Shown in pieces: positions 5,863 to 37,741 of a stretch of DNA of 64,000 bases (positions are counted from its first letter, which is position 1; every line of letters begins with the position of its first letter). Below the pieces are notes generated by a model that saw nothing but the letters and a program-made list of their open reading frames with translations, had not been told where the DNA came from and made no database searches. The translations under genes were made by a program, and so were the position numbers. Source of the stretch: an uncultured Alphaproteobacteria bacterium (GTDB lineage Bacteria; Pseudomonadota; Alphaproteobacteria; CAAHEQ01; UBA3637); contig CALXXX010000019.1 of assembly GCA_944392795.1 (NCBI GenBank), positions 15,916 to 79,915 on the forward strand, in the 5' to 3' direction.

Positions 5863-6221
5863 GTCAGAAGGTCAGGCAATCGCTGAGCAGTTTCATGCTT
5901 GGAGGAAAGTCCGGACTTCCTGGGAATAGAGTGACGGTTAACGACCGCCCGGGGCGACCCGAGGGAGAGTGCCACAGAAAATAAACCGCCTGTCTGTCGG
6001 CAGGTAAGGGTGAAACGGCGAGATAAGAGCTCACCGCTTTTCCGGTAACGGAAAAGGCAAGGTAAACCCCACTCGAAGCAAGACCAAGAAAGCGGCTCTG
6101 ATTAAATTCAGAAGGGACTGTTCCCATCCCGCCCAATAGGTAGGTCGCAAGAGGCGTTCAGTAATGGACGTCCTAGATGAATGATTGCCCGAGACAAAAT
6201 CCGGCTTATCGACCTTCTGAC
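5863..6221 (+). ncRNA. rnpB: RNase P RNA (bacterial type A)
   Basis: Universal motifs read directly: GGAGGAAAGTCCGGACTTCC, GCCACAGAAAA, CAGGTAAGGGTGAAACGGCGAGATAAGAGCTCACCG, GGTAAACCCCACTCGAAGCAAGACCAA, CTAGATGAATGATTGCCC, ATCCGGCTTATCG. The terminal P1 pairing is GTCAGAAGGTC...GACCTTCTGAC. The region contains only a spurious antisense ORF. Confidence 0.9.
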
Positions 6222-6222
6222 T

Positions 6223-21852: not shown

Positions 21853-21888
21853 AAAAAAGGACTCTGTTAAAAACAGAGTCCTTTTTGT
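21853..21888 (+). terminator. intrinsic terminator (GGACTCTGT-taaaaa-ACAGAGTCC + T5)
   Basis: Perfect 9-bp stem with a T-tract, directly after the 20915..21835 CDS. Confidence 0.7.
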
Positions 21889-21968
21889 ATAATTTTACAT
21901 AAAAAAATTGACTTGTGTTTTTTTTATGGTTACAAAAAAATAAGGTTGTTTTTTGTCAGGAGGTATGT

Positions 21969-22445
21969 ATGAAAAATACGATTTCTTCACCAATTTTAGA
22001 TAATACATTTATTTTTGACCTGTTCCAAAAGAAAATGAGGCGTGTATGGAAACAAATTCGTACAACTGTAAATTTACAATCAACAGATTGCCAAGGGTAT
22101 TCGTTACTTCACATGTCTGTTTTTTTAGGGCTGCGACCTTTGAGTGAATTTTTGATCCGTCAAGGAGCAGATGTTAATGCACGTAGTAAGACAAAATTTA
22201 CACCTCTTCATTTGGCCGCGCATCAGGCAAATGAAGAAATGATTAAAATGTTATTGGCCTATGGTGCACGAACCGATTTGAAAGATTATCTTCATCGGAC
22301 ACCTTTAGCGTACATGAAAACACTTGACTTCTCGGATAAAAGAAACGAAGCACGCGCTTGCATGGAATTATTAAAAAGAACGGTTCGCATTCAATCACAT
22401 GAAACAGCTCATTTAAGGAATAGGTTGTTAACGCATACACGTTAA
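21969..22445 (+). CDS. ankyrin-repeat protein
   Basis: Canonical ANK repeats (GYSLLHMSVFLGLRPLSEFLIRQGADVNARSKTKFTPLHLAAHQANEEMIKMLLAYGARTDLKD..RTPL). Start at ATG 21969, preceded by GGAGG. Confidence 0.7.
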   Translation: MKNTISSPILDNTFIFDLFQKKMRRVWKQIRTTVNLQSTDCQGYSLLHMSVFLGLRPLSEFLIRQGADVNARSKTKFTPLHLAAHQANEEMIKMLLAYGARTDLKDYLHRTPLAYMKTLDFSDKRNEARACMELLKRTVRIQSHETAHLRNRLLTHTR

Positions 22446-22888
22446 AAATGTATCCGCTCTTCAAGTAATTTTAATCCTTTTTGTGTCCACCGTTTTAAAA
22501 AAGATGGTTTTTCCTTGGCTTTGTTTTCTTTGAGCTCAAGCAATAACCGAGCATGATGATATCGCTCTAGATACAGTTTTCGCCAAGCGGCCATTTCTGA
22601 TAAACTTTTTTGTGTCAAATCAAAGAAACGAGGAGGGTTATTATACATTTTTTGAACAAGCTCCATCACTTTTTCTTTTGATATCCGTGAATGAATGCAA
22701 GTTCCATTTTTGGCAATTTCCTCGGCCTTACGTGTTGAGATTTGAGCACGTAAGTGTTTGTTTTGATTTTGAAGAGATTGAATTTCTTTTTGAATTTCGA
22801 CAAAGGATAAGTCCTCTGTTTGGGAAAGAACTTTTCTGACCGTCATCACAGCTTTCCCAACTGTGGGCGGTTTTGTATCGTGTATCAT
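22442..22888 (-). CDS. hypothetical protein (coiled-coil rich)
   Basis: 148-aa ORF with no recognisable family. Convergent with the ankyrin gene. Confidence 0.45.
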   Translation of the reverse strand: MIHDTKPPTVGKAVMTVRKVLSQTEDLSFVEIQKEIQSLQNQNKHLRAQISTRKAEEIAKNGTCIHSRISKEKVMELVQKMYNNPPRFFDLTQKSLSEMAAWRKLYLERYHHARLLLELKENKAKEKPSFLKRWTQKGLKLLEERIHF

Positions 22889-22975
22889 AAAAACTCCTTT
22901 AGAAGGACATTATAACACAAACTCTCTCAAAAATCAAGGGAGGTTCTCAAGTTTCTCGTTTTGCGCGTATGGCGT

Positions 22976-23557
22976 TTATTCCTCTTTTCGAGATACAATA
23001 ACTAAAGCTTCGCGTAGCACACGATCTCCACCAATTGTGTAGCCCTTTTGCCATTCTTGAAGAACGGTTCCATTCGGCTTCTCCGGATCAGAGATTTCTT
23101 GGATAGCTTTTTGGAAATTGGGATCAAAGGGTTTGCCGACGGATTCGATTTCTTTGACACCATTTTTTTCAAGAGCTGTTTGTAATTCTTTTTGCGTCAT
23201 GACAATCCCTTCAAAGAGACTTTTTAAATAAGCATTATTTTCTAGCTCTGTCGGGATAGGTAAGGCCAGAGCTCTTGCGAGATTATCTGCAACAGGTAAT
23301 AAAGCTAAGGCAAAGTCAGCAATGGCAATTTTGGCATTTTTTTCGATTTCAATTTGAGATCGCTTTTTCACATTTTCCATTTCAGCATAAGCTCTCATGA
23401 ACTTATCCCGGAGTTCGGTTGTCTCTTTTTCAAGCTTTTTAATTGTTTCCGCTTGATTGAATGAGGCGTTTTCCATTTTTTCTGACTGTTTTTTTTCAGG
23501 CTGTTCTAGTTTTTTTTCTTCTTTTTTGATGTGTTTTTCTTGATTTTTCTGTGTCAT
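22976..23557 (-). CDS. grpE: nucleotide exchange factor GrpE
   Basis: GrpE core (..R..AE.EN.KKR...E.......A.......LLPV.DNL.RAL...). Confidence 0.9.
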
Positions 23558-23644
23558 GGTTTATCCTTTTCAAAAAAACGACTTAAGACTATATGTAGGA
23601 AAAGTTTTCACATTTTGCAAGATTTATTATTAAAAGGATTAAAA

Positions 23645-24361
23645 ATGAGAGTAAATAATCGAAAATCAAATGAGTTGCGCTCTGTTACGCTAACACCGAA
23701 CGTTAATTGTTATGCAGAAGGTTCTTGTTTAATTAAATGCGGTCGAACACATGTTTTATGTATGGCTTCATTAGAAGAGCGCGTTCCTGCCTGGGTGAAA
23801 GGGAGCGGGACAGGTTGGGTAACGGCTGAGTATGGAATGTTGCCGCGAGCAACAGGGACACGGACAGACCGTGAAGCGAAAAAAGGACAAACCGGTCGAA
23901 CCCATGAGATACAAAGGTTGATAGGTCGAGCATTGCGTGCCGCTGTCGATTTAAAAGCCATGGGCGAGGTTTCTATCAAGGTTGATTGTGATGTGCTGCA
24001 AGCAGATGGTGGGACGCGAACAGCTTCTATTACGGGGGGCTTTGTGGCGTTGGCGTTAGCTTGTCATCAGCTTGTTCAAAAAGGGATCTTAAAACAAAAT
24101 CCGTTAATAACAACCGTTTCTGCTATTTCTTGCGGTATTTATGGTGGAGAAGCTCTGTTGGATTTAGATTATGAAGAGGATTCTCATGCGGATACAGATG
24201 CTAATTTCGTAATGACAGGAGATGGCGGTATTGTTGAAATTCAAGGAACAGCAGAAGGGAAACCTTTTTCAGAAACAGATTTTTTGAGGTTATTAGAATT
24301 AGCTAAAAAAGGCACTTCTGAATTGGCTCGATTGCAGCAAGAAATTTTGGAGGGCAAATAA
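23645..24361 (+). CDS. rph: ribonuclease PH
   Basis: R..R..NELR.V.......AEGS.L...G.T.VLC.AS... and [13 protein letters not shown] signature. Start moved to ATG 23645 ([12 protein letters not shown]). Confidence 0.92.
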
Positions 24362-24951
24362 TGACAAAACAGCTGATTTTTGCTTCTCGGAACGCGGGTA
24401 AGATTAAAGAAATTCGTTCTTTGTTGAAGCCGTTAGGTGTTGAAGTTCTATCGGCAATTGAAGCCGACTTACCAGAGGTTGAAGAAACAGGAGAAACTTT
24501 TGCAGAAAATGCCTCATTAAAAGCATCTTCTGCCGCTTTATCAGCAGGCCTTCCGGCATTAGCGGATGATTCTGGATTATGTATTCATGCTTTAAAAAAT
24601 GCGCCTGGTGTTCAAACAGCTAGATATGCACAGAAATGTGGAGGCTATGATTCAGCTTTTGCGGATATTTTAAAAAAGTTGGAGGGTAAGTCTGATTGGA
24701 CAGCTCATTTTTCTTGTGCTATTGCCTTAGCGTTTCCGAATGGAACGATAAAGACTTATGAAGGAAAATGTGAAGGGCGTATTGTTCAACCCAAAGGGAT
24801 AGACGGTTTTGGATTCGATCCGATTTTTGAGCCGAAAGGATATACGCAAACTTTTGCTGAATTACCGGAAGAGGTTAAAAACCAAATTTCTCATCGTGGT
24901 CGTGCGATGAGAGCCTTTTTGGCTGATTTTGAAAATCTTATTGAAATGTGA
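24361..24951 (+). CDS. rdgB: non-canonical purine NTP pyrophosphatase (dITP/XTP diphosphatase)
   Basis: Ham1 family motifs (FASRNAGKIKE; DDSGLC; GFGFDPIFEP). Conserved rph-rdgB adjacency. Confidence 0.9.
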   Translation: MTKQLIFASRNAGKIKEIRSLLKPLGVEVLSAIEADLPEVEETGETFAENASLKASSAALSAGLPALADDSGLCIHALKNAPGVQTARYAQKCGGYDSAFADILKKLEGKSDWTAHFSCAIALAFPNGTIKTYEGKCEGRIVQPKGIDGFGFDPIFEPKGYTQTFAELPEEVKNQISHRGRAMRAFLADFENLIEM

Positions 24952-25405
24952 TGGTTAAGGTTTTGTTTTCCCCGCTGGACGTGCAATTACCACTTCCAGT
25001 TCCACAAGTGACGCTTGTTGCATAAGGCCAATCACGCGCAGTCAAAAGGGTGCACTCATCGGCTGGTATTTCAGACGCACTGACAGTTAAAGAGTCTGGG
25101 GTGCTGCTGAGACAATAAGAACCATCAAAAGGATTTGCGTTCGGAACATTATCAGTACATCCTTCTGGGAAAATATCATTTTCGCAAAGTTGTTTTAAGT
25201 TGATGGCGGGATAAGAGCGTCTCCAAGAATAAAGTTTAGCGGTTTCGTCACCTATATAAGAAATGGAATCATGTAACTGACTGCTTTTAAGTTTCAAACG
25301 AGCTTGTCCGAAGCCGGCTAAAGCGCCAATAGAAATAATACCGATAATCATTAAAACGGCCAGCATTTCAATCATGCTTCGTCCATATTGTGTCGCTTGT
25401 GTCAT
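24938..25405 (-). CDS. pilin-like protein with prepilin-type N-terminal cleavage/methylation-like domain (paralog 1)
   Basis: Short leader MTQATQYG, then RSMIEMLAVLMIIGIISIGALAGF (Glu at +5, hydrophobic helix), which is the class-III signal architecture. Strong RBS AAAAGGAGAAAAAAT before ATG 25405. Cys-containing C-terminal globular part. Confidence 0.6.
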   Translation of the reverse strand: MTQATQYGRSMIEMLAVLMIIGIISIGALAGFGQARLKLKSSQLHDSISYIGDETAKLYSWRRSYPAINLKQLCENDIFPEGCTDNVPNANPFDGSYCLSSTPDSLTVSASEIPADECTLLTARDWPYATSVTCGTGSGNCTSSGENKTLTITFQ

Positions 25406-25430
25406 ATTTTTTCTCCTTTTTTTAGTCAGT

Positions 25431-26567
25431 TTAACGCGAAAGCGCTTGAAATACAACTTCTTTTTCAGAAGGGCACCCTAGGTTTAGCCATATTTCTTTA
25501 TAGTATTTAAAAGCCTGGTTTAACTCTTTTTCAGTTGTTTTCCCTTGTCGAAGCATGTCTTCTACCCTAAAGGGGAACTTAGGTTCTTTCCATTTTTGAA
25601 TATCTTGAAAGCTTTTTTGTGTCATGTGACGGCGACAGATGAGTTCTTTTCGCTGAACGGCTTGAGCTCCATAAAGAAAAAGGGCTTTTTGTCTGTTTGG
25701 TTCTTGTAACGCTTTTCTGAGAGCTGTTAAAGCTCGTCGTTCTTTGTTTTGGAGCCATGTCGGTGCGGGACTTTGAGGGATAAAAGCACACAAACGTGCA
25801 ATGATATCCGGTTTGTTTAATAAATTTAATCGTCTTTCTCGTGCAATCACTCGACGTAAAGCTTTAAAATTCCAAGGTCCGCTAATCATTTCTTTTAAAA
25901 CGCCTGTTCGAGCCATATAACGTAAAACGATATCCGCTCGTGGTAAAGCGAAGATTTTCATCATTTCATCATGTAGCCTTTGCAAAGAAAGGATACTTAT
26001 TTTTTTGCGTGCTGTGTGACAAGCGTGTAAGGCTTTTTTATCCGGTTTTCCTTTTCCGAAGCGCCCCCAAAATCTGAAAAAGCGCAAAATACGCAAATAG
26101 TCTTCTTCGATACGTTTTGTTGGTTCACCGATAAAACGAACATGTCCTTTTTTTAAATCTCGCAACCCATGAAAAAAATCTAAAATATCACCAGTCTGAT
26201 TCATATAGAGAGCGTTTATTGTAAAATCTCGACGAGCTGCATCTTCCTTGATTGAAGTGCCAAAGGTAACTTCAGCATGTCGACCATCGGTGTGAATGTC
26301 TTTCCGAAAAGTTGTTAATTCCACATGATGCTTTTTATAAATAACCGTTACGGTTCCAAAAGCTAAACCGGTCGGAACCACACAACAACCGGCAGCTTTT
26401 AACTTTTTAGTCGCTTCCTCGGGTAAAAGAGGGGTTGCCATATCAATATCATTTCCGGAGATATGCAGAATTTTATCTCGAACGGCTCCTCCGACGAAGT
26501 AAACCTGTTCAGCAAGTGTTTCTAAAACTTTTTGTGCGGCTTTATTGTCTAAAAAATTTTTGTTCAT
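25431..26567 (-). CDS. cca: CCA tRNA nucleotidyltransferase (poly(A) polymerase/CCA-adding family)
   Basis: Pol-beta-like NT motif (..YFVGGAVRDKIL.....DIDMAT). Confidence 0.85.
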   Translation of the reverse strand: MNKNFLDNKAAQKVLETLAEQVYFVGGAVRDKILHISGNDIDMATPLLPEEATKKLKAAGCCVVPTGLAFGTVTVIYKKHHVELTTFRKDIHTDGRHAEVTFGTSIKEDAARRDFTINALYMNQTGDILDFFHGLRDLKKGHVRFIGEPTKRIEEDYLRILRFFRFWGRFGKGKPDKKALHACHTARKKISILSLQRLHDEMMKIFALPRADIVLRYMARTGVLKEMISGPWNFKALRRVIARERRLNLLNKPDIIARLCAFIPQSPAPTWLQNKERRALTALRKALQEPNRQKALFLYGAQAVQRKELICRRHMTQKSFQDIQKWKEPKFPFRVEDMLRQGKTTEKELNQAFKYYKEIWLNLGCPSEKEVVFQALSR

Positions 26568-26809
26568 AATCTTATTCTAGCCTTTTTCTTCTTAAAAGCC
26601 GAGTCGTTTTTTTATTTTGATTCAAATTTATGCGAAAATGAAAATTTATCTTCTTTTAATGAGTCCTTTTAACTTAAAACAGCTGTTTTTAAATACTATA
26701 GGTTGTGGTTTATTGTTTCTAAAGATACTAAATTTGACTTTTGGTTAAAAATGTGTTAATAAATAATTCCATGTTATGTATACCTCTAAATTTCTAGAAA
26801 GGCCATACC

Positions 26810-27547
26810 ATGATTTCTATCCAGAAACTATCTCCTGAATTTCAACTTCTACAACATGACACCTCACTTTTTTCCTCCGAGACGGAGGCTCGCGTTAACG
26901 AGTTATGGCAGGCGGCTCTTTCGACATCGAATAGCCGCCTTTTTAATGGTCTCGTCTTTTCGGCGGATACAGTGAAGCCAGACTGTATTTCCGGTTCTTT
27001 TGTCGAATATCGTTATTTAATTGCGCAGAGAATGGATCCTCGATTAAAACAAGTTTTAAATATCAATCCTGTTTCAGTGATGGGTTTTTTAAGCTGTAAA
27101 GATGGTGTTTTGTTCGGAAAACGTCCTGAATGGGTTGCGACGCGTCCGAATGAATGGGGTTTTTTACCGTCTAGCTATATAAAACCGGATGTTTTTTCTC
27201 ATGACGGTTGTCTTGACTATGTTAAGTCATTTTTAGTTGAGTTGAAAAACGAGTTGAATATTGAAGCACAAGACTTAAATGATTTTTCTCATCATTCATT
27301 GGTTGTGGAGAGGACTTTGGAAGGAGATCACTACGCCTTAGTGATGAAAGCAGATGTGGCATTGTCCGTCTTTAGCATTAAAAATGCGCATTTAAATGCT
27401 TCAGAAGACGAATATGCAGATGTTGTCGCGGTTCATCCGTATGAGTTGGATTCTTTTATGGCAGATAAAACCGGACGAGATATATCCATTGCCGCCAGCT
27501 TATTAGCAGATGAGGGATATTTAGCTCTTGAATCTGATTGCGCATAA
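26810..27547 (+). CDS. hypothetical protein (possibly degenerate NUDIX-like fold)
   Basis: 245-aa cytosolic ORF with no canonical Nudix box. Placement next to cca resembles alphaproteobacterial nudix-cca neighbourhoods. Confidence 0.45.
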   Translation: MISIQKLSPEFQLLQHDTSLFSSETEARVNELWQAALSTSNSRLFNGLVFSADTVKPDCISGSFVEYRYLIAQRMDPRLKQVLNINPVSVMGFLSCKDGVLFGKRPEWVATRPNEWGFLPSSYIKPDVFSHDGCLDYVKSFLVELKNELNIEAQDLNDFSHHSLVVERTLEGDHYALVMKADVALSVFSIKNAHLNASEDEYADVVAVHPYELDSFMADKTGRDISIAASLLADEGYLALESDCA

Positions 27548-27562
27548 GCGTATAACAAAAAT

Positions 27563-28720
27563 ATGATGATTGATACAAATGAAAAACTGGCGGCTTTGTG
27601 CGCTCGTTTGGAGCGTTCGCCTTTTATTACAGTTGACACGGAATTTATTCGTGAAAAGACATATTGGCCTGAATTATGTCTGATTCAAATTGCCGATGAA
27701 AAAGAAGCAGCGTGTGTTGATCCGTTAGCTTCGGGATTAGACTTATCTCCTCTTTTGTCATTGATGCAAAATCCTCGTGTTTTGAAGGTTTTTCACTCCG
27801 GTCGACAAGATATTGAAATTTTTTATCATTTAATGCATGCAGTTCCGGCTCCTGTGTTTGATACACAAATCGGTGCGATGGTTCTGGGGCTTGGAGAGAG
27901 TGTGTCGTATCAGGCTTTAGTTCACTCTTTTTTAAAAATAGAGCTTGATAAGTCTGCTCGATTTACGGATTGGTCGCATCGTCCGCTGACAAAAAAGCAG
28001 GTGGAATATGCCCTGTCTGACGTGGTTCATTTAGTTCCCATTTATCAAAAAATGATACAGCGTTTAGATGAGCAAAAAAGAACTTCGTGGGTACAAAATG
28101 AAATGGATCATTTGATTGATCCGAGTTTATATGATGTGGATCCCATGGAGGTTTATAAACGCGTTAAACGCACAACGGATCAGCCTCTTTTTGTCGCGTT
28201 ATTGCAGGCGTTGTGTGCTTGGAGAGAGCGATTAGCACAAAGTTTAAATCGTCCTCGTCGATTGATTTTGAAGGATGAAGCTTTGTTAGAATTGGCAGCT
28301 TCTCGACCTCAGACTTTGGAAGATTTATCCCAGATGCGTCAAATGCCCTCGGGCATCATTAAAAAGCACGGGGAGGAAATTTTAACGGTAATAAAAGAGG
28401 TTTTATCTTCGCCTTCAGAAAAATGGCCTCATCTCATTAAAGTAAAGCCATTAAGCTCTGCTCAAAAGAATATAAAAGAAATGCTGCGGCTTTTGTTGAC
28501 AATTGTGTGTGAGCAAGCCGGAGTTGCTCCTAAAGTTGTGGCTTCAAATGAGGATTTGGAAGCATTGGCTCGTTCTGAAAATCCGGATATTCCGGCGATG
28601 AAAGGTTTTCGATATGAGCTTTTTGGTCGTTCGGCACAGGCTTTTAAAGCGGGACAACTCGCACTGGTGTTTGATCCTAAAAGTCATAAAATGCTTTTTA
28701 TGGAGCGGCAGAAAATATAA
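27563..28720 (+). CDS. rnd: ribonuclease D
   Basis: DEDDy 3'-5' exonuclease motifs (ITVDTEF; HSGRQDIE; YALSDV) plus an HRDC-like C-terminus. Confidence 0.85.
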   Translation: MMIDTNEKLAALCARLERSPFITVDTEFIREKTYWPELCLIQIADEKEAACVDPLASGLDLSPLLSLMQNPRVLKVFHSGRQDIEIFYHLMHAVPAPVFDTQIGAMVLGLGESVSYQALVHSFLKIELDKSARFTDWSHRPLTKKQVEYALSDVVHLVPIYQKMIQRLDEQKRTSWVQNEMDHLIDPSLYDVDPMEVYKRVKRTTDQPLFVALLQALCAWRERLAQSLNRPRRLILKDEALLELAASRPQTLEDLSQMRQMPSGIIKKHGEEILTVIKEVLSSPSEKWPHLIKVKPLSSAQKNIKEMLRLLLTIVCEQAGVAPKVVASNEDLEALARSENPDIPAMKGFRYELFGRSAQAFKAGQLALVFDPKSHKMLFMERQKI

Positions 28721-28737
28721 TAAAAAGGAGAAAAACT

Positions 28738-29250
28738 ATGGATGCTATGACAAATTTACTGACCCATCGTTCAGTTCGAGCCTATCGCTCTGGTCAAAAA
28801 ATCCCAAAAGAAAAGTTGGAGAGTATTTTAAAAGCAGGTATGTATGCTCCATCAGCAATGCATAAAAGTCCTTGGGCTTTTGTTGTTATTCAAGATCCTC
28901 AAAAATTGGAAGAAATAACACATATTCATCCGCATGCACATTTTGTGACGGAGGCGGGATGTGCAATTGTTGTTTGTGCCGATAAATCTGCCGCTTATGA
29001 AGATTATTGGTGTGTAGATCCTTTGTTGGCCGCTCAAAATATTTTGTTAGCGGCGCATGCAGAAGGTTTTGGAACGTGTTGGTGTGGTGTATATCCGACT
29101 AAAGAACGAATGGCTGCTTTTTCGATATTGCTTTCATTGCCGGCTCATATTCAACCGATGGCTTTGATAGCTCTTGGTGTTCCGAAAGATAAAGCAGCTC
29201 AACCAAAGGATCAATTTAATCCGACGCTTATTCATCAGGAACAGTGGTAA
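28738..29250 (+). CDS. nitroreductase family protein
   Basis: HRSVRAY.......E....IL.AG..APSA...PW.FVV motif of the NfsB/FRase family. Confidence 0.75.
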   Translation: MDAMTNLLTHRSVRAYRSGQKIPKEKLESILKAGMYAPSAMHKSPWAFVVIQDPQKLEEITHIHPHAHFVTEAGCAIVVCADKSAAYEDYWCVDPLLAAQNILLAAHAEGFGTCWCGVYPTKERMAAFSILLSLPAHIQPMALIALGVPKDKAAQPKDQFNPTLIHQEQW

Positions 29251-29252
29251 GC

Positions 29253-29666
29253 TTATTCTGTGTAAGTGAAAGATACTGTAACGTCTTCTTGATTTCCGCA
29301 GATATCTGTACTTCCAGTAAACAGAGCGTCGTTAGCATGGATTGTATGTGTTTTTTCAAGCTTGGGTAAGACGGCTCGACAAACCTTCCATGGAACTTGG
29401 GTTGTCATGGTGAAGCGATAAGGTGTTTCTATTGTGATATTCAGGATGTCTACATCGGATAGCTTATAAGAGCTGCCGGCAGAGAGGCCTCGCCAATCAT
29501 CGCGCAGGACCATTTCTTTTGTCGCATAGCTGACTTCTGAGGCAATATGAATAGCTTGTCCACTGGTTCTTGCTTGAACTAATCCCCATAGGCCGCCGAT
29601 TGACAAAGCTCCCATGATGGCTAGGACAGCTAACATTTCCAGCATTGAACGTCCGAGTTGTGTCAT
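29253..29666 (-). CDS. pilin-like protein with prepilin-type N-terminal domain (paralog 2)
   Basis: Leader MTQLG, then RSMLEMLAVLAIMGALSIGGLWG. The RBS context (AAAGGAGAAAAAATGAC) is nearly identical to that of paralog 1. Confidence 0.6.
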   Translation of the reverse strand: MTQLGRSMLEMLAVLAIMGALSIGGLWGLVQARTSGQAIHIASEVSYATKEMVLRDDWRGLSAGSSYKLSDVDILNITIETPYRFTMTTQVPWKVCRAVLPKLEKTHTIHANDALFTGSTDICGNQEDVTVSFTYTE

Positions 29667-29754
29667 TTTTTCTCCTTTAAAATAAAATAAGATATTTCTA
29701 GGGTTGTTTCAAGAGCAAAGATAATTTTGCAAGAAAAAAGTAATTACTTTGTTA

Positions 29755-30609
29755 TTACTTTTTGATTAAATTTTCAGAAAAATCAGCAGCTTCTAAGGTT
29801 ATATCAGGCTGCATTTGATGTCTAAACCATGTCGATTGTCGTTTAGCATAATTGCGGGTCATTTGTTGAGCGTGTTCAATCGCTTTGCTTTCAGATAAAG
29901 AACCTTCCAGAACTTGTGTTAATTCGGCTACGCCGATAGCTTGAAACACACCGCCGGTTTTGTTTGGATTTTTATTTAACAACTCGGCGACTTGTTGTAA
30001 GGCGCCTGCGGCCATCATCTGTGTGAAACGGTAATTACATTGTATATACAGTTTTTCTCTTGGGGGAAGAATGAGAAAGGTGTAAAAATCTCCTGAAATC
30101 AATGGCTTTGATGGAATTGATTGCCATTCGAATATTGTTTTTCCTGTTGTTAGTTCAACTTCTAAGGCACGACGCAATCGTTGTGGGTCTGAAAAACGTT
30201 TATCTCTGACTTTCGCTTGCACCTCATCAATAGGCATTTGACGAACGGAACGGCGAATTTCTTCAGGAATGTCGGGAAGAGAAGTTAAACCTTTCGTCAG
30301 AGCCTTGATATAAAGTCCTGTTCCTCCAACAAAAATAGGCGTTTCAATGTCTGAAATAATTTGTTTGACTTTTTCCAGCCATAAGGCGACGGAACTTTTT
30401 TGAAAAGCATTTAAAAAACCATAGAGTAAATGAGGAATATTCTCTTGCTCTTCTGGCGTGGGGCGAGCCGTTAAAATGGGAACGTCTTCATAGACTTGTA
30501 AAGAATCTGCATTGATGATTGTCCCGTTGACGGCTTTGGCTAAACGGAGACTGAAAGCAGATTTACCGGAAGCGGTTGGTCCGGCGACCACATACATTTT
30601 TCTTTTCAT
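29755..30609 (-). CDS. miaA: tRNA dimethylallyltransferase
   Basis: P-loop GPTASGKS and an IPT-family core. Confidence 0.9.
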   Translation of the reverse strand: MKRKMYVVAGPTASGKSAFSLRLAKAVNGTIINADSLQVYEDVPILTARPTPEEQENIPHLLYGFLNAFQKSSVALWLEKVKQIISDIETPIFVGGTGLYIKALTKGLTSLPDIPEEIRRSVRQMPIDEVQAKVRDKRFSDPQRLRRALEVELTTGKTIFEWQSIPSKPLISGDFYTFLILPPREKLYIQCNYRFTQMMAAGALQQVAELLNKNPNKTGGVFQAIGVAELTQVLEGSLSESKAIEHAQQMTRNYAKRQSTWFRHQMQPDITLEAADFSENLIKK

Positions 30610-30668
30610 GATGTTATTTTATGTTCTTTTTATTTAAAAAATCATTAAAATGAATTATACTCATCGAT

Positions 30669-31415
30669 ATGACAGATAGATATGCTTTTAGATATGTTGA
30701 AACAACTGTTCAGTCGTCTTGGCGGAACAGCTTTTGGGCTGAGGGGAAAAACCTTTTGGATGACGTGTCCGCACGATTTAAGGGGGAAAAAGTTATTTTC
30801 AAAGATATATCCGCACCGGCCCTTTACTGGGGTGTTTTAACGCCTGTCTGCGAAGAAAAACCAGCCTTTGAACTGGTTGATAGCTATGGTGCCGATGCGG
30901 TTCGATTAGCAATGCTTCAACCGGGAGGTCTGTCCGAACAGACATTGACGGGAGCTTGGCGACTGATGAACGCATTATGGTTGGGGCTTCGGGATAAAAC
31001 AGAAATGGTTTCTGATTGGAATGATAAGGAATTGGTTCCGGCTTTGCATGCTTTACAGAAAGAGGACTTTTCTGATTTGTTGATACACCTAAAAAGTCTT
31101 TTTCACAAAGGTCCAAGAGCATCTTTGCTTCCGTTATTATATCCGTTTATACCACACTTAATAACGCATTTGATTCCGGATATACAGGCACATATGCATG
31201 CTTTTTCTCAAAAATGGAAAACTCAATGTTTGCCGCCCGTCTTATTTATTGAAGTAAACGGAGAACGTCTGGCTGATTTTGTGCCGAATAGTTTAGAAAA
31301 CGAGGAAATAAAAAAAGAAGCCTTGTCTTTTCCAGTCGTTCAACATAAAATAAGTGGACGTCCAGTACGTGATGTTAAAATAATACCGTTAAAGGGAGTG
31401 AATTTTGTCGTTTAA
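30669..31415 (+). pseudogene. leuS: leucyl-tRNA synthetase 3' remnant (about 250 codons, post-KMSKS / anticodon-binding / C-terminal domain only)
   Basis: ..SYGADAVRLAML.. matches the conserved YGAD(T/A)(V/L)RL motif that follows KMSKS in class-I LeuRS. The C-terminal ..VNGE.......V........E.......V.......GR.V..V..IP.K.VN.VV matches the LeuRS C-terminus. The catalytic domain is absent. Position upstream of lptE-holA is the canonical leuS locus. Confidence 0.6.
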
Positions 31416-31914
31416 GTCTGTTATATGTGTTTGTTTGTTGGTTCTAACGGCAGCTTGTGGATGGACGCCGGTATATATGAAAAATAAACAAGATATTTCC
31501 GTTCTGAATGAAACGGCTCAAATTCGTGTCGCAAAGGTGCCTGAAGAAACAGGACGTATTTTGGTGCGAACATTAAAAAATGCGTTAAATCCGAATAATC
31601 AAGATGTTTCTAAAAAATATGAGTTGCAAATTAACTTATCTGAAACATTAAACACCGATCAAGGAATTCTAGGAGATAACACGGCGACACGAGCGACTAT
31701 GCAGTTAACTGCTAAATATAAGTTAGTCGAGTTAGAGACGAATCGTGTTCTTTTATCAGATTCGGCATATACAATCTCAAGCTATAATATTTTGACGGCG
31801 CCTTATGCAACTTTAACGGCTGAGCAAACAACGCGTCGACGCTTGGCAGAGCTTTTGGGTGATGCTATTGCTCTTAGAATGGCCAGTTATTTCAAAGGAA
31901 AGAGCTTGCCATGA
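31405..31914 (+). CDS. lptE: LPS-assembly lipoprotein LptE
   Basis: Lipobox LTAACGW. Size about 170 aa. Conserved position between leuS and holA. Confidence 0.7.
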   Translation: MSFKSVICVCLLVLTAACGWTPVYMKNKQDISVLNETAQIRVAKVPEETGRILVRTLKNALNPNNQDVSKKYELQINLSETLNTDQGILGDNTATRATMQLTAKYKLVELETNRVLLSDSAYTISSYNILTAPYATLTAEQTTRRRLAELLGDAIALRMASYFKGKSLP

Positions 31915-32945
31915 AAGTGAAGGCTGGGCAACTGAAAGCATTGGCTCCTGAGATTAGTTCTTCTTTTAAAGCTTTCCTGATTTATGGAACAGATGTCGGC
32001 GCTATTGATGAAACGGCTGCTCGTATTCAAAAAATGTTATCGGATAAAAAGCCGTTGGCGGTGACAGAATTGACTGTTGAGCGATTGCGAGAAACGCCAA
32101 CTTTATTTTGGGATGAAGTTGGTGCATTATCTATGTTTGGCGATCGTCATCTTATTCGAATGAAAAATCCGACGGATACTTTTGCCAAGGAGTTGGAAAC
32201 ATATTTATCGTCAGATACGGGAGATGTATTTGTTTTAATCACCGCAGATAATTTGAATACAAAATCAGCTTTAGTTAAATTATGTGATAGCGCTGTTGGT
32301 GTCGGTGCTTTAGGTTGTTATCCGCAGGAAGAAAGTGATATTCGTGCAACGATTTCTGGAATTTTATCAGAGAATGGTTTTGTGATTGCACCAGAAGCAT
32401 TAACTTTTTTGTCTCAGAATTTAGGAGCGGACAAAGGTATTACTTTATCGGAAATAGATAAGTTAATGCTTTATATGGGAGATGAAAAACAAGTGAGCTT
32501 AGCCGATGCTGAAGCAGTGATTGGAAATGGTTCTGCAGTTTCTATGGATGATTTAATGATGCATGTTTTATCTGGGCAAGCTTCTTTAGCACAGAAGGAT
32601 TTTGATTTATTGCAACAAGAAGGAGTTGCAGCAGCACAGATAACGCGCGCTTTTGTTTTAAAGATAAATCAACTGCTTTTGGTTTTGTCGAAGATGAAAA
32701 AAGGAGAGCCGGTCGATACAGCTATTCGTGGGACGCCGCCGTTTATTCCTTTTAAGTATAGCTCATTGTGGAAACGTATTGTCTTAAGTTGGCCTGAAAG
32801 TTATACCATGGATGCTTTGAATATTATGTTGACAGCGGAGAAAGAGACTAAGATAGGTTTACCGGCAGATTTGATATGCAATCGGGCCTTAACGAGCTTA
32901 ACAGCCGCTGGGAAAAAATTTTTAATGGGCAAAGATCGGAAATGA
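31911..32945 (+). CDS. holA: DNA polymerase III subunit delta
   Basis: Length and AAA-lid-like organisation. Conserved leuS-lptE-holA synteny. Confidence 0.8.
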   Translation: MKVKAGQLKALAPEISSSFKAFLIYGTDVGAIDETAARIQKMLSDKKPLAVTELTVERLRETPTLFWDEVGALSMFGDRHLIRMKNPTDTFAKELETYLSSDTGDVFVLITADNLNTKSALVKLCDSAVGVGALGCYPQEESDIRATISGILSENGFVIAPEALTFLSQNLGADKGITLSEIDKLMLYMGDEKQVSLADAEAVIGNGSAVSMDDLMMHVLSGQASLAQKDFDLLQQEGVAAAQITRAFVLKINQLLLVLSKMKKGEPVDTAIRGTPPFIPFKYSSLWKRIVLSWPESYTMDALNIMLTAEKETKIGLPADLICNRALTSLTAAGKKFLMGKDRK

Positions 32946-32950
32946 TTGAA

Positions 32951-32978
32951 AAAAAACGCCCCGACCGGAGCGTTTTCA
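32951..32978. terminator. putative bidirectional terminator between holA and rpmJ
   Basis: A7, then ACGC..GCGT stem with an internal CCGG, then T4. Weaker than the other terminators. Confidence 0.35.
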
Positions 32979-32994
32979 TCTTAACAATCGCGTT

Positions 32995-33135
32995 TATTTT
33001 TTGGTCGGTTTACCCTGACGCGCTTTATAACGCGGATTTACTTTGTTAATAATAAAGACACGCCCTTTTCTTTTAACGATTTTGTTATTTTTGTCGCGTT
33101 TAAAAGCCGCCTTTAAAGAGTTAACGATTTTCATA
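32995..33135 (-). CDS. rpmJ: 50S ribosomal protein L36 (Cys-less, YkgO-type)
   Basis: Not in the ORF track because it is below the length cutoff. Reverse-strand translation gives [46 protein letters not shown], matching the L36 pattern MK(V/I).(N/S)SLK.......(C/N).(I/V)(V/I)(K/R)R.GR(V/L)(Y/F)(V/I)I(N/C)K.NP..K(A/Q)RQG. Confidence 0.8.
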
Positions 33136-33212
33136 ATACCACCTTACTTCATTTTATCGGAAACTTGAGAGGGTAAAATACAGGATTTTAAAATACTTGT
33201 CAACAAGAATCT

Positions 33213-34199
33213 TTATTTATCAAAAAAACCGACGACTTCAATGTGTTTTGAATAAATAAATTGATCAATGGGAATGACTTTTTGCAGCATCCATCCGCCG
33301 GCAGTTAAAAGAGCTGCATCACGTGCAAAAGTTTGAGGATTACAGGAAACCATTATAATGCGTTTCAAATCAAGGTCTGCCAATATTTGACATTGTGCTT
33401 CAGCACCAGCACGAGGCGGATCCAAAACAACAGCCTCTACATTTGAGAACTCATGCGATGTTAACGGATTACGGAATAAATCTCGTTTTTCGGCAGGTAT
33501 GTTTTGCTGCTGGAGTGCAGCAATCGATTCGTCAGTAGAATCATACCCTTTAACGATAAAACCAGCCTGATGCAACGGTCGTGTAAAAGTTCCTTGTCCA
33601 CAAAACAAATCTAAGACATGTGAACAGCCGTTAACGCCTTTTAACACAAGCTTGACTAGAGTTTCTTCTCCAATTTGAGACGGTTGTAGAAAAACATCTG
33701 GAGGAAAAGGCAGTGTATGGATCTGATAAATCAGTTCATCGTGATAATGAAAACGCACAATGGAATTATTTTGGCAGAAAGTTGTGAGTGCTTCTAACTT
33801 TGCAAGAGGAAGTTTATGTTCTTTGTCTTTCCAAACAATATCGATCCCCCAGTCAGTGTCTGTGACGGCAATATCTCCTGAAGAATGCAACGCTTTAACA
33901 AGTTCTCTGAGTGATGGTATTAGTTTTTCCAAAGAGGGTGTCAGAACTAAGCAGGAAGTAATAGGGATAATTGTGTGGCTTTTAAAGGCGTTAAATCCCA
34001 ATACTCCATTTTTCATAGCAAAAGTTGCGCGCCGACGTGTTCCTGACGGAAGAGCGATGACATCATCGACTGGCGGTGTTAAATCTCGATGTCGTAAAGC
34101 CTCTATAACGACATTCTTTTTCATTATAAGATAATCAGATGGTTGTAAGTCTTGAAATAAACATCCGCCACATTTGCCAAAAAAAGGACATTGTCTCAT
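33213..34199 (-). CDS. class I SAM-dependent RNA (uracil-5-)-methyltransferase family protein (RlmD/TrmA-like, no TRAM domain)
   Basis: N-terminal Cys cluster CPFFGKCGGC. SAM fold motif DLFCGQGTF. Catalytic ..DPPRAG. and the C-terminal nucleophile region. Confidence 0.75.
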   Translation of the reverse strand: MRQCPFFGKCGGCLFQDLQPSDYLIMKKNVVIEALRHRDLTPPVDDVIALPSGTRRRATFAMKNGVLGFNAFKSHTIIPITSCLVLTPSLEKLIPSLRELVKALHSSGDIAVTDTDWGIDIVWKDKEHKLPLAKLEALTTFCQNNSIVRFHYHDELIYQIHTLPFPPDVFLQPSQIGEETLVKLVLKGVNGCSHVLDLFCGQGTFTRPLHQAGFIVKGYDSTDESIAALQQQNIPAEKRDLFRNPLTSHEFSNVEAVVLDPPRAGAEAQCQILADLDLKRIIMVSCNPQTFARDAALLTAGGWMLQKVIPIDQFIYSKHIEVVGFFDK

Positions 34200-34930
34200 T
34201 TATCGCTCCGAGTTTTGGCCGCAATCATACCGGCAAAGTACATGAAGAAAAAGAATAAATAAACACGTACGATTAAATCAAAGATGAGCAATAGTAAATT
34301 TACAGACCAAAAAAGTGTGGATTGTCCTAAATCGACTAAAGAAAAAGAAATCCAATTTAAAAATTGTCCCCAATAGGAGAAAAATAAACTTAATACAACA
34401 GCAGCACCTGTAATATCTAGGACATGTAGCCAGTTTTTTTTGAAATATTCAAAAGTGTGCCGGAATGCTGGTAATTTATTTTCAGGAAGTCGTTGAATGA
34501 AAAGAAGGTTGTAAGGAGTAACAATTATCAGCAAGTAAGCCAGTAAAATAAAAGCAGCTAAATGAGGAGTCGTCATTGTAAAGGGAAGAATCAAGCAAAT
34601 TCCCAGAACGGTTAATCCGGCTTGACAAAAGAGGAAAGATAAACCGGTAGTAAAGAGCTTTTTAAAAGATATTGCTTGCCAGGGATTTTTTTTGCTTTCC
34701 ATAACATGAACAGAAAACATTAATCCATGTCCTATAAAGAAAACAAAAAGGAACAGAAAGATGAAAGAAGTTATCAATTGCTGAATGAATAAAGTTTCTA
34801 TTGAAAAATCACGGAAAAAGGCTCGAGAAAAAAGGAAAAAGAAGAAAGCATAAACAAAGAGCAAACAGGCCGTCCAAACGAGAATAGAACGTCCCCAAGT
34901 TTCTTTTAACATTTTTTTTAAAAAAGACAT
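34196..34930 (-). CDS. hypothetical polytopic membrane protein (Phe/Leu-rich)
   Basis: Start at ATG 34930, preceded by AGGAGG. 6-7 predicted TM helices. No family recognised. Confidence 0.5.
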   Translation of the reverse strand: MSFLKKMLKETWGRSILVWTACLLFVYAFFFFLFSRAFFRDFSIETLFIQQLITSFIFLFLFVFFIGHGLMFSVHVMESKKNPWQAISFKKLFTTGLSFLFCQAGLTVLGICLILPFTMTTPHLAAFILLAYLLIIVTPYNLLFIQRLPENKLPAFRHTFEYFKKNWLHVLDITGAAVVLSLFFSYWGQFLNWISFSLVDLGQSTLFWSVNLLLLIFDLIVRVYLFFFFMYFAGMIAAKTRSDK

Positions 34931-34940
34931 AGTTCCTCCT

Positions 34941-36077
34941 TTAAAGTTTATGAAAATAATTATCTTGCTCTTTGTTGTTGTGTGCATTTAAAAAGATATC
35001 ATATTGTTCTTCGATAGGAGCTAGACGCTCAGGATTGGAAGCTTTAACATCACTTTGAGGTGTTTTTTGTTTTTGATAGACAAAGCCTGTTTGAGCAAAT
35101 AAATGAGCGATTGTTGCAAAATAAGCGCTCCATAGGAAGAAAAAGAAAAATAAACCAAAAACATTTATCATCAGAGGAATGATTAAATCGTTTGACCACA
35201 TAGGTAGATAATGTGTTAATATCAGCCATAAAAACGCAAACGGGATTGTCGGCAGGAAAAACCATAATCTGGCCGGAGAAAATAAGACCATCATTAACAC
35301 GTAAGATACCATAAAAAAGAAGCAAACAGTTAAATTATCTGAATGTTTGAGAACCAGGATAATTAAAGTTTGTAATCCAGCAAAGATAAATGTCGTCAGG
35401 AAAGTCCAACCTAATAATTCGGCAAAGGTTCGTCTATTCTCAAAAACGGTCTTCAGATTAACCACATTTTTAAAAGCGAACCGTTGAGCAAATAAAGGAT
35501 AAGCATAGGCGAAATAAACTAAGACACCGATGGCGACACAAAGGAAAATCCATATTCCAAAGGGTTGTGGCAAAAAGTCGCCTGCAGCAGAGGAGGGGGG
35601 CGCCGTTAGAGTGAAAATACGTCTGACTTGTTCATCGAGTAAAGCATAAATTCCGGCGAGGACAGGAAAGCTGAAAAGTAGAGCTTTCCCAAGTAGTTTT
35701 AGGAAAAACAGGAAATGAATTGTCGGCGGATATTGAAACAAATCTCTTTTGGCTCTGGCGAAATAATAATTAAAGAAAATTAAATGTATTAAAGCCATAA
35801 AGAAAGACATTAAAACGACTATTTGCAAGAAAATGAAAATTAAATATGTGTTTTCTGAAATAATGACAAAAAAGCCGAAGATAAATTGTAATAAGGCTGT
35901 TTCGGAATCGAATGGTATAGAAATAAGATACCTGAATGCAGGAACTTTCATTAACACTCCCCAACTGATGGAAGCATTTAAGAAAAAGAAAATAATAAAC
36001 ACCCAAGTCATCCAAAAGCCGCCTTGAAAGGTGCGTTTATGAACTGCAAATTTTGCGGCATCATAAAATGAAAGCAT
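34941..36077 (-). CDS. hypothetical polytopic membrane protein (Phe/Leu-rich)
   Basis: Start at ATG 36077, preceded by GGAGG. About 10 TM helices. Tandem with the previous gene. Confidence 0.5.
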   Translation of the reverse strand: MLSFYDAAKFAVHKRTFQGGFWMTWVFIIFFFLNASISWGVLMKVPAFRYLISIPFDSETALLQFIFGFFVIISENTYLIFIFLQIVVLMSFFMALIHLIFFNYYFARAKRDLFQYPPTIHFLFFLKLLGKALLFSFPVLAGIYALLDEQVRRIFTLTAPPSSAAGDFLPQPFGIWIFLCVAIGVLVYFAYAYPLFAQRFAFKNVVNLKTVFENRRTFAELLGWTFLTTFIFAGLQTLIILVLKHSDNLTVCFFFMVSYVLMMVLFSPARLWFFLPTIPFAFLWLILTHYLPMWSNDLIIPLMINVFGLFFFFFLWSAYFATIAHLFAQTGFVYQKQKTPQSDVKASNPERLAPIEEQYDIFLNAHNNKEQDNYFHKL

Positions 36078-36256
36078 TTTTCCTCCGTTTTTTTTCGTAT
36101 CACTATACTTGTTTTTAGTCTTGTTTTCAACAAAATAACACATAAAGTCGGTTTTGCTTTGTTTAAAAAGATAAAAATCATGTTTCTTTCGTAATAAAAT
36201 ATTGACGAATGTGAGAAAAATGCTAGGATAGGAGGAAAAGAAAGGAATAGTGAAAA

Positions 36257-37741
36257 ATGACAACTGAAAATAGTAATTTAGCTGGTTTGGATCAACGTAC
36301 CATTCGGATAGAGAAGCTTAAAAAACTAGAAAATATGGGTATTAATGCGTACCCTCATATTTTTAATCCGGATTTTACATCTAAAGCTTTAAATGAAAAG
36401 TATGCAACATTGGCGAATGAAGAACAAACAGAAGATGAAGTGAAAGTTGCAGGGCGTATTCGTGCTATTCGTAATTCTGGTATGTTTATGGATTTATATG
36501 ACGATACCGGGAAAATCCAAATTTTTTCGTCTTTAGAGAACTTGCCACAAAGTGAAAAAGATGTGTTAGCATTGTTGGATTTGGGAGATATTATAGGTGT
36601 GACTGGGACTGTTCGCCGCACGAAACGGGGAGAGCTTTCTGTTGCAACAAAGCATTTAGATGTTTTGGCTAAGTCATTACAGGTTTTGCCGGAAAAATTC
36701 CACGGTTTACAAGATCAAGATACAAAATATCGTCAACGTTATTTAGATATGATGATCAATCCTGACACAACACGAACGTTGATTATGCGGAGCCAAATTA
36801 TTTCAGCTATTCGTGAATTTTTGAACGGATTAGGTTTTTTGGAAGTGGAAACGCCTATTTTGCATCCTATTTTGGGGGGAGCAAATGCGAAGCCTTTTAT
36901 TACACATCATAATACATTAGATATGGATTTATATTTGCGAATTGCTCCGGAATTGTATTTAAAAAGACTGATTATCGGTGGCTTGCCGGCCGTATATGAA
37001 ATTGGTCGTAATTTCCGCAACGAGGGAATGGATACGCGGCATAACCCGGAATTTACGATGATGGAATTATATTGGGTTTATAAAGACTATAATGATATGA
37101 TGGATTTGTTCGAACAAATTGTTCAGTATGCCGCTATGAAAGTGTTGGGAACAACAACAGTCTCTTTTGATGGAAAAACTTTCGAGTTGGGAGGACATTG
37201 GCCTCGTCGTTCGATGTTGGATTTGGTTAAAGAAGAAACAGGTATTGATTTTGATGCTTTTGAGACAAATGGAGAGGCCATTGAGGCTGCTAAAAAATTG
37301 CATGTAGAGGTTCCAGAAAATGCTTCTTGGGGACTTGTTGTCTCTACTGTTTTTGAAGAAAAATGCGAACATAAACTGATGGGACCGATTTTCGTTATTG
37401 ATCATCCTAAGGATATTTCACCGTTAACAAAAGAACACCGTGCTAATAAACGTTTGGTGGAACGGTTTGAGCCTTTTATCAATACTTGGGAGGTCGGTAA
37501 TGCTTATTCAGAACTTACCAACCCGCTGGACCAACGCGAGCGGCTGGAAGAGCAAGTCAAAGCCCGTGAAGCTGGCGATGATGAGGCAAATATGATGGAT
37601 GAAGATTTCGTCACGGCGTTGGAACATGGTATGCCGCCCACAGGGGGACTTGGCATGGGGATTGATCGGATTGTGATGATTTTAACCGGTTCTTTATCTA
37701 TTCGGGATGTTATCGCTTTCCCAACAATGCGTAAAAAATAA
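36257..37741 (+). CDS. lysS: lysyl-tRNA synthetase, class II
   Basis: OB anticodon-binding domain plus class-II motifs 1-3 (..FRNEG....HNPEFT..E.Y; GGLGMGIDR). Confidence 0.92.
   Translation: MTTENSNLAGLDQRTIRIEKLKKLENMGINAYPHIFNPDFTSKALNEKYATLANEEQTEDEVKVAGRIRAIRNSGMFMDLYDDTGKIQIFSSLENLPQSEKDVLALLDLGDIIGVTGTVRRTKRGELSVATKHLDVLAKSLQVLPEKFHGLQDQDTKYRQRYLDMMINPDTTRTLIMRSQIISAIREFLNGLGFLEVETPILHPILGGANAKPFITHHNTLDMDLYLRIAPELYLKRLIIGGLPAVYEIGRNFRNEGMDTRHNPEFTMMELYWVYKDYNDMMDLFEQIVQYAAMKVLGTTTVSFDGKTFELGGHWPRRSMLDLVKEETGIDFDAFETNGEAIEAAKKLHVEVPENASWGLVVSTVFEEKCEHKLMGPIFVIDHPKDISPLTKEHRANKRLVERFEPFINTWEVGNAYSELTNPLDQRERLEEQVKAREAGDDEANMMDEDFVTALEHGMPPTGGLGMGIDRIVMILTGSLSIRDVIAFPTMRKK

Follow-up and report, generated by a model that had tools for sequence, protein, structure and literature searches.

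The subject of this analysis is a stretch of 64,000 nucleotides from an uncultured Alphaproteobacteria bacterium (assembly GCA_944392795.1, contig CALXXX010000019.1), referred to below as the window. Between miaA and an lptE-holA gene pair, the window contains an open reading frame (ORF) of 248 amino acids that is probably a genuine, translated gene. It appears to descend from leuS, the gene for leucyl-tRNA synthetase (LeuRS), by excision of the catalytic core, and to encode a non-catalytic protein that is under selection, here called mini-LeuRS. The approximately 210 C-terminal amino acids are homologous to the post-KMSKS region, the helical anticodon-binding domain and the C-terminal domain of LeuRS. 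Moreover, purifying selection acts along the whole ORF, which is not a pseudogene. A preliminary description of the same DNA had placed a leuS-derived ORF at the canonical leuS position before lptE-holA, and the lptE-like gene and holA (TIGR01128) are indeed found downstream.

LeuRS Ancestry and Loss of the Catalytic Core

As a single sequence, mini-LeuRS is only weakly recognizable. A Pfam scan returns no match, including none to tRNA-synt_1, and the match to TIGR00396 is restricted to model positions 738-842 (E = 2.4e-4, 19.4 bits against a cut-off of 548.4). The match to PDB entry 5AH5 has an E-value of 0.016. Profiles are more informative. A profile built from five family members matches residues 651-730 and 776-876 of Thermus thermophilus LeuRS as colinear pieces (E = 3e-5), and comparison of a 15-member family alignment with a LeuRS alignment by hhalign gives a probability of 99.35% and an E-value of 5.5e-21, with family columns 38-253 equivalent to residues 601-859 of Escherichia coli LeuRS. 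The AlphaFold2 model has a predicted local distance difference test score (pLDDT) of 80.3 and a predicted template modeling score of 0.77, and the C-terminal 180 residues are mostly above a pLDDT of 85. Residues 69-185 are helical in this model (pLDDT 76-92), and the helical bundle is about 45 amino acids shorter than in LeuRS. In a Foldseek search with the model, the best 25 PDB matches were all bacterial LeuRS (E-values of 2e-8 to 4e-4), and the next match had an E-value of 0.4. The preliminary description had also considered that the ORF might be a different protein sharing a short motif by chance; the profile-profile and structural matches are specific to LeuRS and rule this out. They also bear out its claim that the post-KMSKS motif YGADAVRL (residues 73-80; nt 30885-30908), the anticodon-binding region and the C-terminal domain are kept.

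The HIGH motif, the Rossmann-fold core, the CP1 editing domain, the leucine-specific domain and KMSKS are all absent from mini-LeuRS. Together with a length of 248 amino acids against about 860, this agrees with the earlier estimate that roughly 600 residues of the catalytic and editing portion are gone. Neither HxGH nor KMSK was found in any of 28 mini-LeuRS family members. Among 14 LeuRS controls, HxGH was found in seven and KMSK(S) in 11; most of the controls lacking a motif are fragments, and most of those without HxGH are N-terminally incomplete. At the KMSKS position, the hhalign alignment shows WGVLTPV in the window protein and lGIL in the family consensus. As judged from its sequence, mini-LeuRS is not a synthetase: it cannot activate leucine, charge tRNA or edit because the HIGH motif, Rossmann fold, CP1 domain, leucine-specific domain and KMSKS are gone.

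The preliminary description had further regarded the ORF as a 3' remnant of leuS, with miaA lying where the 5' part would be. Neither point is upheld. The start of the family is invariant in the pattern M-T-D-R-Y...E...Q..W and aligns without gaps, in one register, with all nine LeuRS N-termini at hand, so that Y5, E11, Q15 and W18 of mini-LeuRS are in register with them. In an anchored test with a position-specific scoring matrix, each of the nine gave a p-value of 0.0005-0.018 against composition-preserving shuffles, and all nine outscored the best other N-terminus among 75 window ORFs. Likewise, hhalign places the first 72 residues of mini-LeuRS on E. coli LeuRS 1-92 (E = 6.3e-5), the gap in this alignment coinciding exactly with the HIGH segment, and an E-INS-i alignment agrees with both the N-terminal placement and the HIGH-segment deletion. 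Because the first ~25 residues correspond to the LeuRS N-terminus, the loss would be internal rather than a 5' truncation, and the ancestral start is kept. For the same reason, miaA has not taken the site of the leuS 5' end; the start codons of the two genes are only 59 bp apart.

Residues 29-39 can tentatively be read as what is probably left of the helix after HIGH (E. coli 57-69, IGDVIARYQRMLG). A competing placement comes from the whole-protein hhalign alignment, which sets residue 33 (consensus column 38) onward against E. coli 601-625. In E. coli numbering, the interior missing from leuS would run from about residue 25 to 55 and again from about 70 to 625.

Conservation and Selection

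A word-indexed search recovered four homologues of 248-262 amino acids with identities of 92, 65, 37 and 34%, and an exhaustive profile search recovered 20 cluster representatives (clustered at 50% identity) at E <= 1e-10, about 15 of them complete and 241-263 amino acids long. The reading frame is intact in these ~15 complete representatives and in all fetched loci. All low-GC loci that extend far enough to include the neighbors have the order miaA (reverse strand), mini-LeuRS, lptE, holA. These loci include three GTDB species representatives, uncultured Alphaproteobacteria of gut or rumen-type metagenomes; carrier genomes include CASDQF01, CALXUB01, SUUS01, GCA_949286465.1 (CASECI01) and the bin to which JGI 3300045051 contig Ga0451576_0000056 belongs.

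The ratio of nonsynonymous to synonymous substitution rates (dN/dS, omega; Nei-Gojobori) for the whole gene, a rough value because dS was saturated in most comparisons, was 0.11-0.16 against the ~66% identical orthologue of locus L009 and 0.2-0.38 against deeper relatives, comparable to that of the flanking miaA, lptE and holA. For single segments, dS could be estimated in five cases out of six, and there omega against L009 was 0.09-0.28. The uncorrected proportions are robust despite the saturation of dS, with a nonsynonymous proportion (pN) of about 0.21 and a synonymous proportion (pS) of about 0.66. In each of the six ORF segments pN (0.14-0.32) was well below pS (0.49-0.86). Furthermore, invariant positions occur throughout the fold (R4, Y5, E11, D32, R36, G55, G74, D76, A77, R79, W97, P159, P162, I214). 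If the word remnant is taken to mean a decaying pseudogene, it is contradicted by intact ORFs of constant length in about 20 clusters, by pN far below pS in every segment, and by the maintained synteny and lptE overlap. The alternative offered beside it, a fragment retained as a protein, is favored by conserved length, purifying selection and synteny.

An assembly error across positions 29700-30700, which had been raised as a concern, is excluded. Positions 21873-35104 of the window (13.2 kb) are matched at 99.98% identity by an independent contig of a different sample (ERZ24773405), which carries the same 248-amino-acid ORF 59 bp from miaA. The exact protein was found on three contigs, and at least 14 other contigs or assemblies from different samples have the same architecture.

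Comparison of the window with its close relative L008 (CASDQF010000014.1) over positions 24300-35300 revealed a change in identity inside the mini-LeuRS ORF, around codon 110. From 24.3 to 30.9 kb, identity is ~96-99% in most 300-nt windows, with two dips to 86 and 92%, and miaA has 99% amino acid identity and a dS of 0.03. From ~31.2 kb onward, identity is 80-86%, and dS is 1.25 for lptE and 0.69 for holA. This pattern suggests a homologous-recombination breakpoint around codon 110 of mini-LeuRS. A second patch divergent from L008 lies at 21.9-23.4 kb (73-83% identity).

Relatives and Origin of the Mini-LeuRS Family

Short LeuRS-like proteins of more distant relationship are encoded in genomes with 48-72% GC, namely P0029 and P0120 (282 amino acids each) and a group of 286-362 amino acids. 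In GC-rich Alphaproteobacteria the synteny is DUF3576-mini-lptE-holA, with no miaA upstream. The C-terminal 220 residues of the GC-rich minis match LeuRS with 100% probability (E = 8e-47). In the GC-rich minis of ~350 amino acids, residues 4-94 are colinear with LeuRS 1-97 and the HIGH motif has been erased at its own position (93% probability, E = 2.4e-7). Among full-length LeuRS genes, those with the highest similarity to the GC-rich minis are found at the same position, in the order DUF3576-leuS-lptE-holA. An intact leuS-lptE-holA locus is present in E. coli and also in a metagenomic relative of 30% GC, which came from a metagenome scan with a four-sequence holA alignment (two loci found). 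A search of related genomes for this intact locus had been suggested in the preliminary description, and the DUF3576-leuS-lptE-holA relatives and the 30%-GC locus are what it yields.

A neighbor-joining tree of minis and canonical LeuRS was based on 177 C-terminal columns. In this tree, the low-GC minis form a monophyletic family on a long branch with 100% bootstrap, the GC-rich minis, with 91%, fall among canonical alphaproteobacterial LeuRS, and only 5% of replicates unite all minis in a single clade. This weakly suggests more than one independent hollowing-out of leuS to the same ends-only architecture. The mini family would have arisen from the resident leuS of an alphaproteobacterial leuS-lptE-holA operon whose catalytic core was excised, leaving the first ~25 residues, probably a piece of the post-HIGH helix, and the last ~190 residues.

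Two candidates for related forms were rejected. L023 had the appearance of a half-decayed leuS (a 396-amino-acid ORF without Pfam match plus a 450-amino-acid ORF) and is an ordinary leuS broken by a scaffold gap; P0156/L022 is a normal leuS, from a marine alphaproteobacterium, that was split between two gene calls. In L016/L017 (P0029, 282 amino acids) the N-terminal motif is duplicated (MSERYNGKSWEDWKAEW... then DRYNFRTSERKWDSVW), and P0029 is the sole mini observed without an lptE overlap (4-nt gap). The mini locus of a distant carrier (L025/L026) has hisS and thrS as its flanking genes.

Expression Signals and Proposed Coupling to lptE

The 59-bp intergenic region shared with miaA contains a promoter-like element (Table 1) whose -10 hexamer, TATACT, ends 7 nt before the mini-LeuRS ATG. 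Because no Shine-Dalgarno sequence lies between the two, the mRNA may be leaderless or nearly so. This is a hint only. The promoter scan was not significant by itself (13 sites versus 10 expected), and neither promoter nor terminator scans rose above the shuffled expectation. The -10-like hexamer and an A/T tract are kept in the window and in loci L008, L009, L010 and L007.

At the other end of the ORF, the lptE Shine-Dalgarno sequence and start codon lie inside the last mini-LeuRS codons. The overlap between the two genes described earlier is real; its size is 11 nt (TTG 31405, stop 31413-31415) and not the 10 nt given. An overlap of 11-14 nt is conserved in most mini relatives and is present with full-length leuS too. 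Because of this arrangement, translation of mini-LeuRS would be coupled to that of lptE-holA, and the gene would therefore also act as the first cistron driving expression of two essential genes. The start of holA overlaps the lptE stop by 4 nt (ATGA).

The product of the lptE-like gene has a signal peptide with a lipobox-like LTAAC when read from TTG 31405. A Pfam scan of the window protein itself gave no match, and its orthologues have weak matches to PF04390 (LptE). Public assemblies start the gene at an internal ATG at 31477 (145 amino acids; e.g., L001, L012, L013), losing the signal peptide and lipobox. TTG 31405, with a Shine-Dalgarno sequence 6 nt upstream, is the more plausible start.

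Function and Alternative Explanations

The mini protein may serve as a non-catalytic RNA-binding module that recognizes tRNA(Leu) or another structured RNA via its retained body and C-terminal domain. Such a non-charging role in tRNA(Leu) or RNA binding is a serious possibility to which we would give somewhat less than an even chance. The C-terminal domain of bacterial LeuRS docks the elbow and variable arm of tRNA(Leu) and is needed for aminoacylation (PMC3561953). Most mini family members are basic, with isoelectric points (pI) of 8-10 versus 4.9-6.6 for the same region of true LeuRS, which is weak support for RNA binding.

A number of observations count against this account of the gene and its product. 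The window mini-LeuRS is not basic (pI 6.5). Two C-terminal-domain positions important for tRNA(Leu) binding are not conserved in its clade, which mostly has Glu at the equivalent of Mycobacterium tuberculosis Q915 (E. coli Q805) and is hydrophobic at the equivalent of E. coli R811, where the GC-rich minis keep Arg. The roughness of the omega values must also be considered, and over residues 151-190 (31119-31238) the comparison with L008, the closest pair, gave an omega of about 2.2, with seven amino acid changes and almost no synonymous ones. The same segment gave 0.22 against L009, and the high value could represent a recombination junction, local relaxation or noise from few changes. The tests that favor N-terminal homology were all restricted ones; a database-wide profile search of PDB sequences with the N-terminal 50 amino acids returned no LeuRS and only a spurious somatoliberin match. 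Finally, a full-length leuS was not found in the window or the fetched carrier flanks by ORF size, NCBIfam or tblastn, and in no carrier locus is there one closer than about 10 kb to the mini gene. The largest window ORFs encode FtsK, an Aas-type acyltransferase/ligase, LysRS and a 771-amino-acid protein without assigned family, and the only other class I synthetase signal is cysS (62705-64000, reverse strand), which runs off the right end. Because LeuRS is universally essential, another part of the genome would encode a full-length LeuRS that performs leucylation, and horizontal acquisition of this gene, which the preliminary description had proposed, is conceivable.

The conserved overlap with lptE, whose Shine-Dalgarno sequence and TTG lie in the last mini-LeuRS codons, allows another reading. 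The ORF could be a functionless relic of leuS that serves as an expression scaffold, with its ends kept for the promoter, the start and ribosome delivery to lptE, and with the frame rather than the protein under selection. The same overlap with full-length leuS, the retention of exactly the two leuS ends and the lack of conservation of key tRNA-contact positions in the window clade are all consistent with such a scaffold. It predicts, however, that pN should about equal pS beyond the last ~10 codons, whereas pN was the lower in all six segments. The scattering of invariant residues across the fold, the confident AlphaFold2 model and the constant length of 241-263 amino acids over saturating divergence also argue against a mere scaffold, which we regard as unlikely.

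Strong conservation would also fit an essential role as a trans-acting subunit of a split LeuRS, one that supplies the tRNA-binding body and C-terminal domain like the Aquifex aeolicus beta subunit, and the requirement for this domain in aminoacylation by bacterial LeuRS favors the same idea (PMC3561953). Yet KMSKS is absent from all 28 minis, the minis keep a LeuRS N-terminus that is needless for a C-terminal subunit, the tRNA-contact residues are partly lost in the window clade, and no partner gene was seen in the window or the fetched loci. A split synthetase is disfavored and quite unlikely. Mis-assembly, a frameshifted full-length leuS or an unrelated protein with a short motif would explain the weak single-sequence matches (TIGR00396; no Pfam match), but such artefacts are highly improbable given the 99.98% identical independent assembly, the like architecture of at least 14 other contigs, and the LeuRS-specific profile-profile and structural matches. 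In addition, there is no space for missing leuS exons because the upstream intergenic region is only 59 bp. The reading of mini-LeuRS as a selected, non-catalytic derivative of leuS is preferred.

Two further functional proposals were dismissed. A decoy or immunity protein against LeuRS-targeting toxins would have no synthetic or editing site left for the toxin to bind, and a functional link to miaA is countered by the GC-rich carriers, which have DUF3576 upstream instead.

Other Features of the Window

Genes related to tRNA and rRNA are unusually concentrated around mini-LeuRS (25431-37741 and 62705-64000; Table 1): those for the CCA-adding enzyme, RNase D and an RlmD-like methyltransferase, miaA, lysS and the incomplete cysS, with miaB and RNase P RNA located farther away in the window. 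The 137-amino-acid ORF next to miaA, which is also found beside miaA in L001, L008, L009 and L012, is possibly a pseudopilin-like protein. It has a prepilin-type N-terminal cleavage/methylation motif (weak match to TIGR02532, 15.8 versus 16.3 bits) and no other family match. Four sizeable ORFs, of 771, 263, 440 and 245 amino acids, had no match in NCBIfam. The 1135-amino-acid protein also matches a bifunctional Aas model (acyltransferase/acyl-ACP synthetase). The genome is small and has a GC content of 38.6%.

Table 1. Positions of the mini-LeuRS gene, its parts and signals, and other features of the window.
Feature	Position	Strand	Description
RNase P RNA	5864-6224
miaB	15008-16336
CCA-adding enzyme	25431-26567
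245-aa protein	26810-27547	+	Adjoins rnd in relatives, conserved; no NCBIfam match
RNase D (rnd)	27563-28720
137-aa ORF	29253-29666	-	Possibly pseudopilin-like
miaA	29755-30609	-	TIGR00174, 198 bits; divergent from mini-LeuRS ORF
Promoter-like element	30633-30661	+	TTTAAA-17-TATACT; consensus scan
mini-LeuRS ORF	30669-31415	+	ATG to TAA, 248 aa
LeuRS N-terminal segment, residues 1-25	30669-30743	+	MTDRYAFRYVETTVQSSWRNSFWAE; equivalent of E. coli LeuRS 1-24
LLDDVSARFKG, residues 29-39	30753-30785	+	Probable, tentative post-HIGH helix remnant; hhalign of N-terminal 72 aa, E-INS-i
Post-KMSKS segment with YGADAVRL and helical anticodon-binding-type bundle, residues 69-185	30873-31223	+	hhalign, PDB profile alignment, AlphaFold2
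LeuRS C-terminal domain, residues 190-248	31236-31412	+	beta-beta-alpha-alpha-beta-beta; profile and hhalign matches; AlphaFold2 pLDDT 88-93
lptE initiation region	31392-31407	+	Shine-Dalgarno AAGGGAG (31392-31398), 6-nt spacer, TTG 31405
LptE-like lipoprotein gene	31405-31914	+	169 aa, TTG start; position and lipoprotein signal
holA (DNA polymerase III delta subunit)	31911-32945	+	TIGR01128, 128 bits against cut-off of 80
RlmD-like methyltransferase	33213-34199
263-aa and 440-aa proteins	34196-34987, 34941-36263	-	Adjacent, overlapping, strongly hydrophobic (Phe/Leu/Ile-rich); no NCBIfam match
lysS	36257-37741
1135-aa protein	52351-55758	+	NF005291 (acyl-[ACP]--phospholipid O-acyltransferase), 1184 bits, below cut-off of 1349 bits
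771-aa protein	60183-62498	-	No NCBIfam match

Comparison with Known Systems and Implications

Bacterial LeuRS (TIGR00396; E. coli 4AQ7, T. thermophilus 1H3N) and mini-LeuRS share the same genomic position, directly before and overlapping lptE-holA. They also share a homologous N-terminus of ~25 amino acids, the post-KMSKS segment, the helical anticodon-binding-type domain and the C-terminal domain. They differ in length, in the shortened helical bundle of the mini protein, and in its lack of HIGH, KMSKS, Rossmann core, CP1 and leucine-specific domain. The beta subunit of the A. aeolicus split LeuRS is similar to mini-LeuRS in being a separate protein of ~250-290 amino acids that consists of the C-terminal tRNA-binding part, and the retained C-terminal part of mini-LeuRS presumably starts close to where the beta subunit starts. 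KMSKS is present in the beta subunit, which has a known alpha subunit as its partner. In contrast, mini-LeuRS has no KMSKS, has the LeuRS N-terminus fused in front and has no partner that was seen. Binding of tRNA(Leu) by the Aquifex beta subunit through its C-terminal domain is cited in PMC3561953.

Other unusual LeuRS are archaeal. LeuRS-I of the Sulfolobaceae and LeuRS2 of the Halobacteria bind tRNA(Leu), with no aminoacylation by LeuRS-I and weak aminoacylation by LeuRS2 (PMC9437257; PMC4005665). These proteins are near full-length and keep the catalytic domain, and LeuRS-I makes Leu-AMP, whereas mini-LeuRS comes from bacteria, lacks the core entirely and is found where leuS ancestrally stood, not as an additional copy. 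A 2022 review of aminoacyl-tRNA synthetase (aaRS) duplications lists LeuRS-I and LeuRS2 as the only odd LeuRS copies and no LeuRS-like protein, and it notes that several non-catalytic aaRS-derived proteins act via tRNA or RNA binding or as regulatory subunits (PMC9437257). Like HisZ, Trbp111 and C-Ala, mini-LeuRS is an aaRS-derived module kept under selection without aminoacylation, and it combines the features of such proteins: aaRS origin, no aminoacylation site and purifying selection. Unlike mini-LeuRS, none of the three is derived from LeuRS or is an in-situ descendant of a housekeeping gene. No description of a short LeuRS-like family or of a leuS-lptE remnant was found in the literature.

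Automated annotation will mislabel minis as 'hypothetical', 'leucyl-tRNA synthetase' or 'class I tRNA ligase family protein, partial', which may distort estimates of completeness and metabolic calls for metagenome-assembled genomes. Specifically, a JGI source labels the 348-amino-acid mini P0192 'leucyl-tRNA synthetase', and in NCBI records several incomplete fragments from the LeuRS C-terminus are called 'class I tRNA ligase family protein, partial'.

Non-charging aaRS-derived proteins such as HisZ, YadB and AlaX have repeatedly opened new biology. In the mini-LeuRS family, a housekeeping leuS appears to have lost its interior at its own locus and to have persisted under selection throughout entire clades, so that the LeuRS N-terminus and tRNA-binding body would form a viable, selectable stand-alone protein. 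The essential LeuRS would have been relocated or replaced in the carriers, which provides a testable case of aaRS gene displacement. It is conceivable, though doubtful, that the two LeuRS ends also serve a non-catalytic purpose linked to the leuS-lptE-holA operon, and that this second function mattered enough for the ends-only form to be retained when leucylation moved, maybe with at least two origins (low-GC gut and GC-rich). One candidate would be binding of tRNA(Leu) or RNA through which the state of translation is coupled to expression of envelope and replication genes; another would be help in trans to a relocated or foreign LeuRS. If this is true, the minis would be the first LeuRS-derived pseudo-synthetase family, and they would offer a handle on the wide conservation of the leuS-lptE-holA linkage in Proteobacteria.

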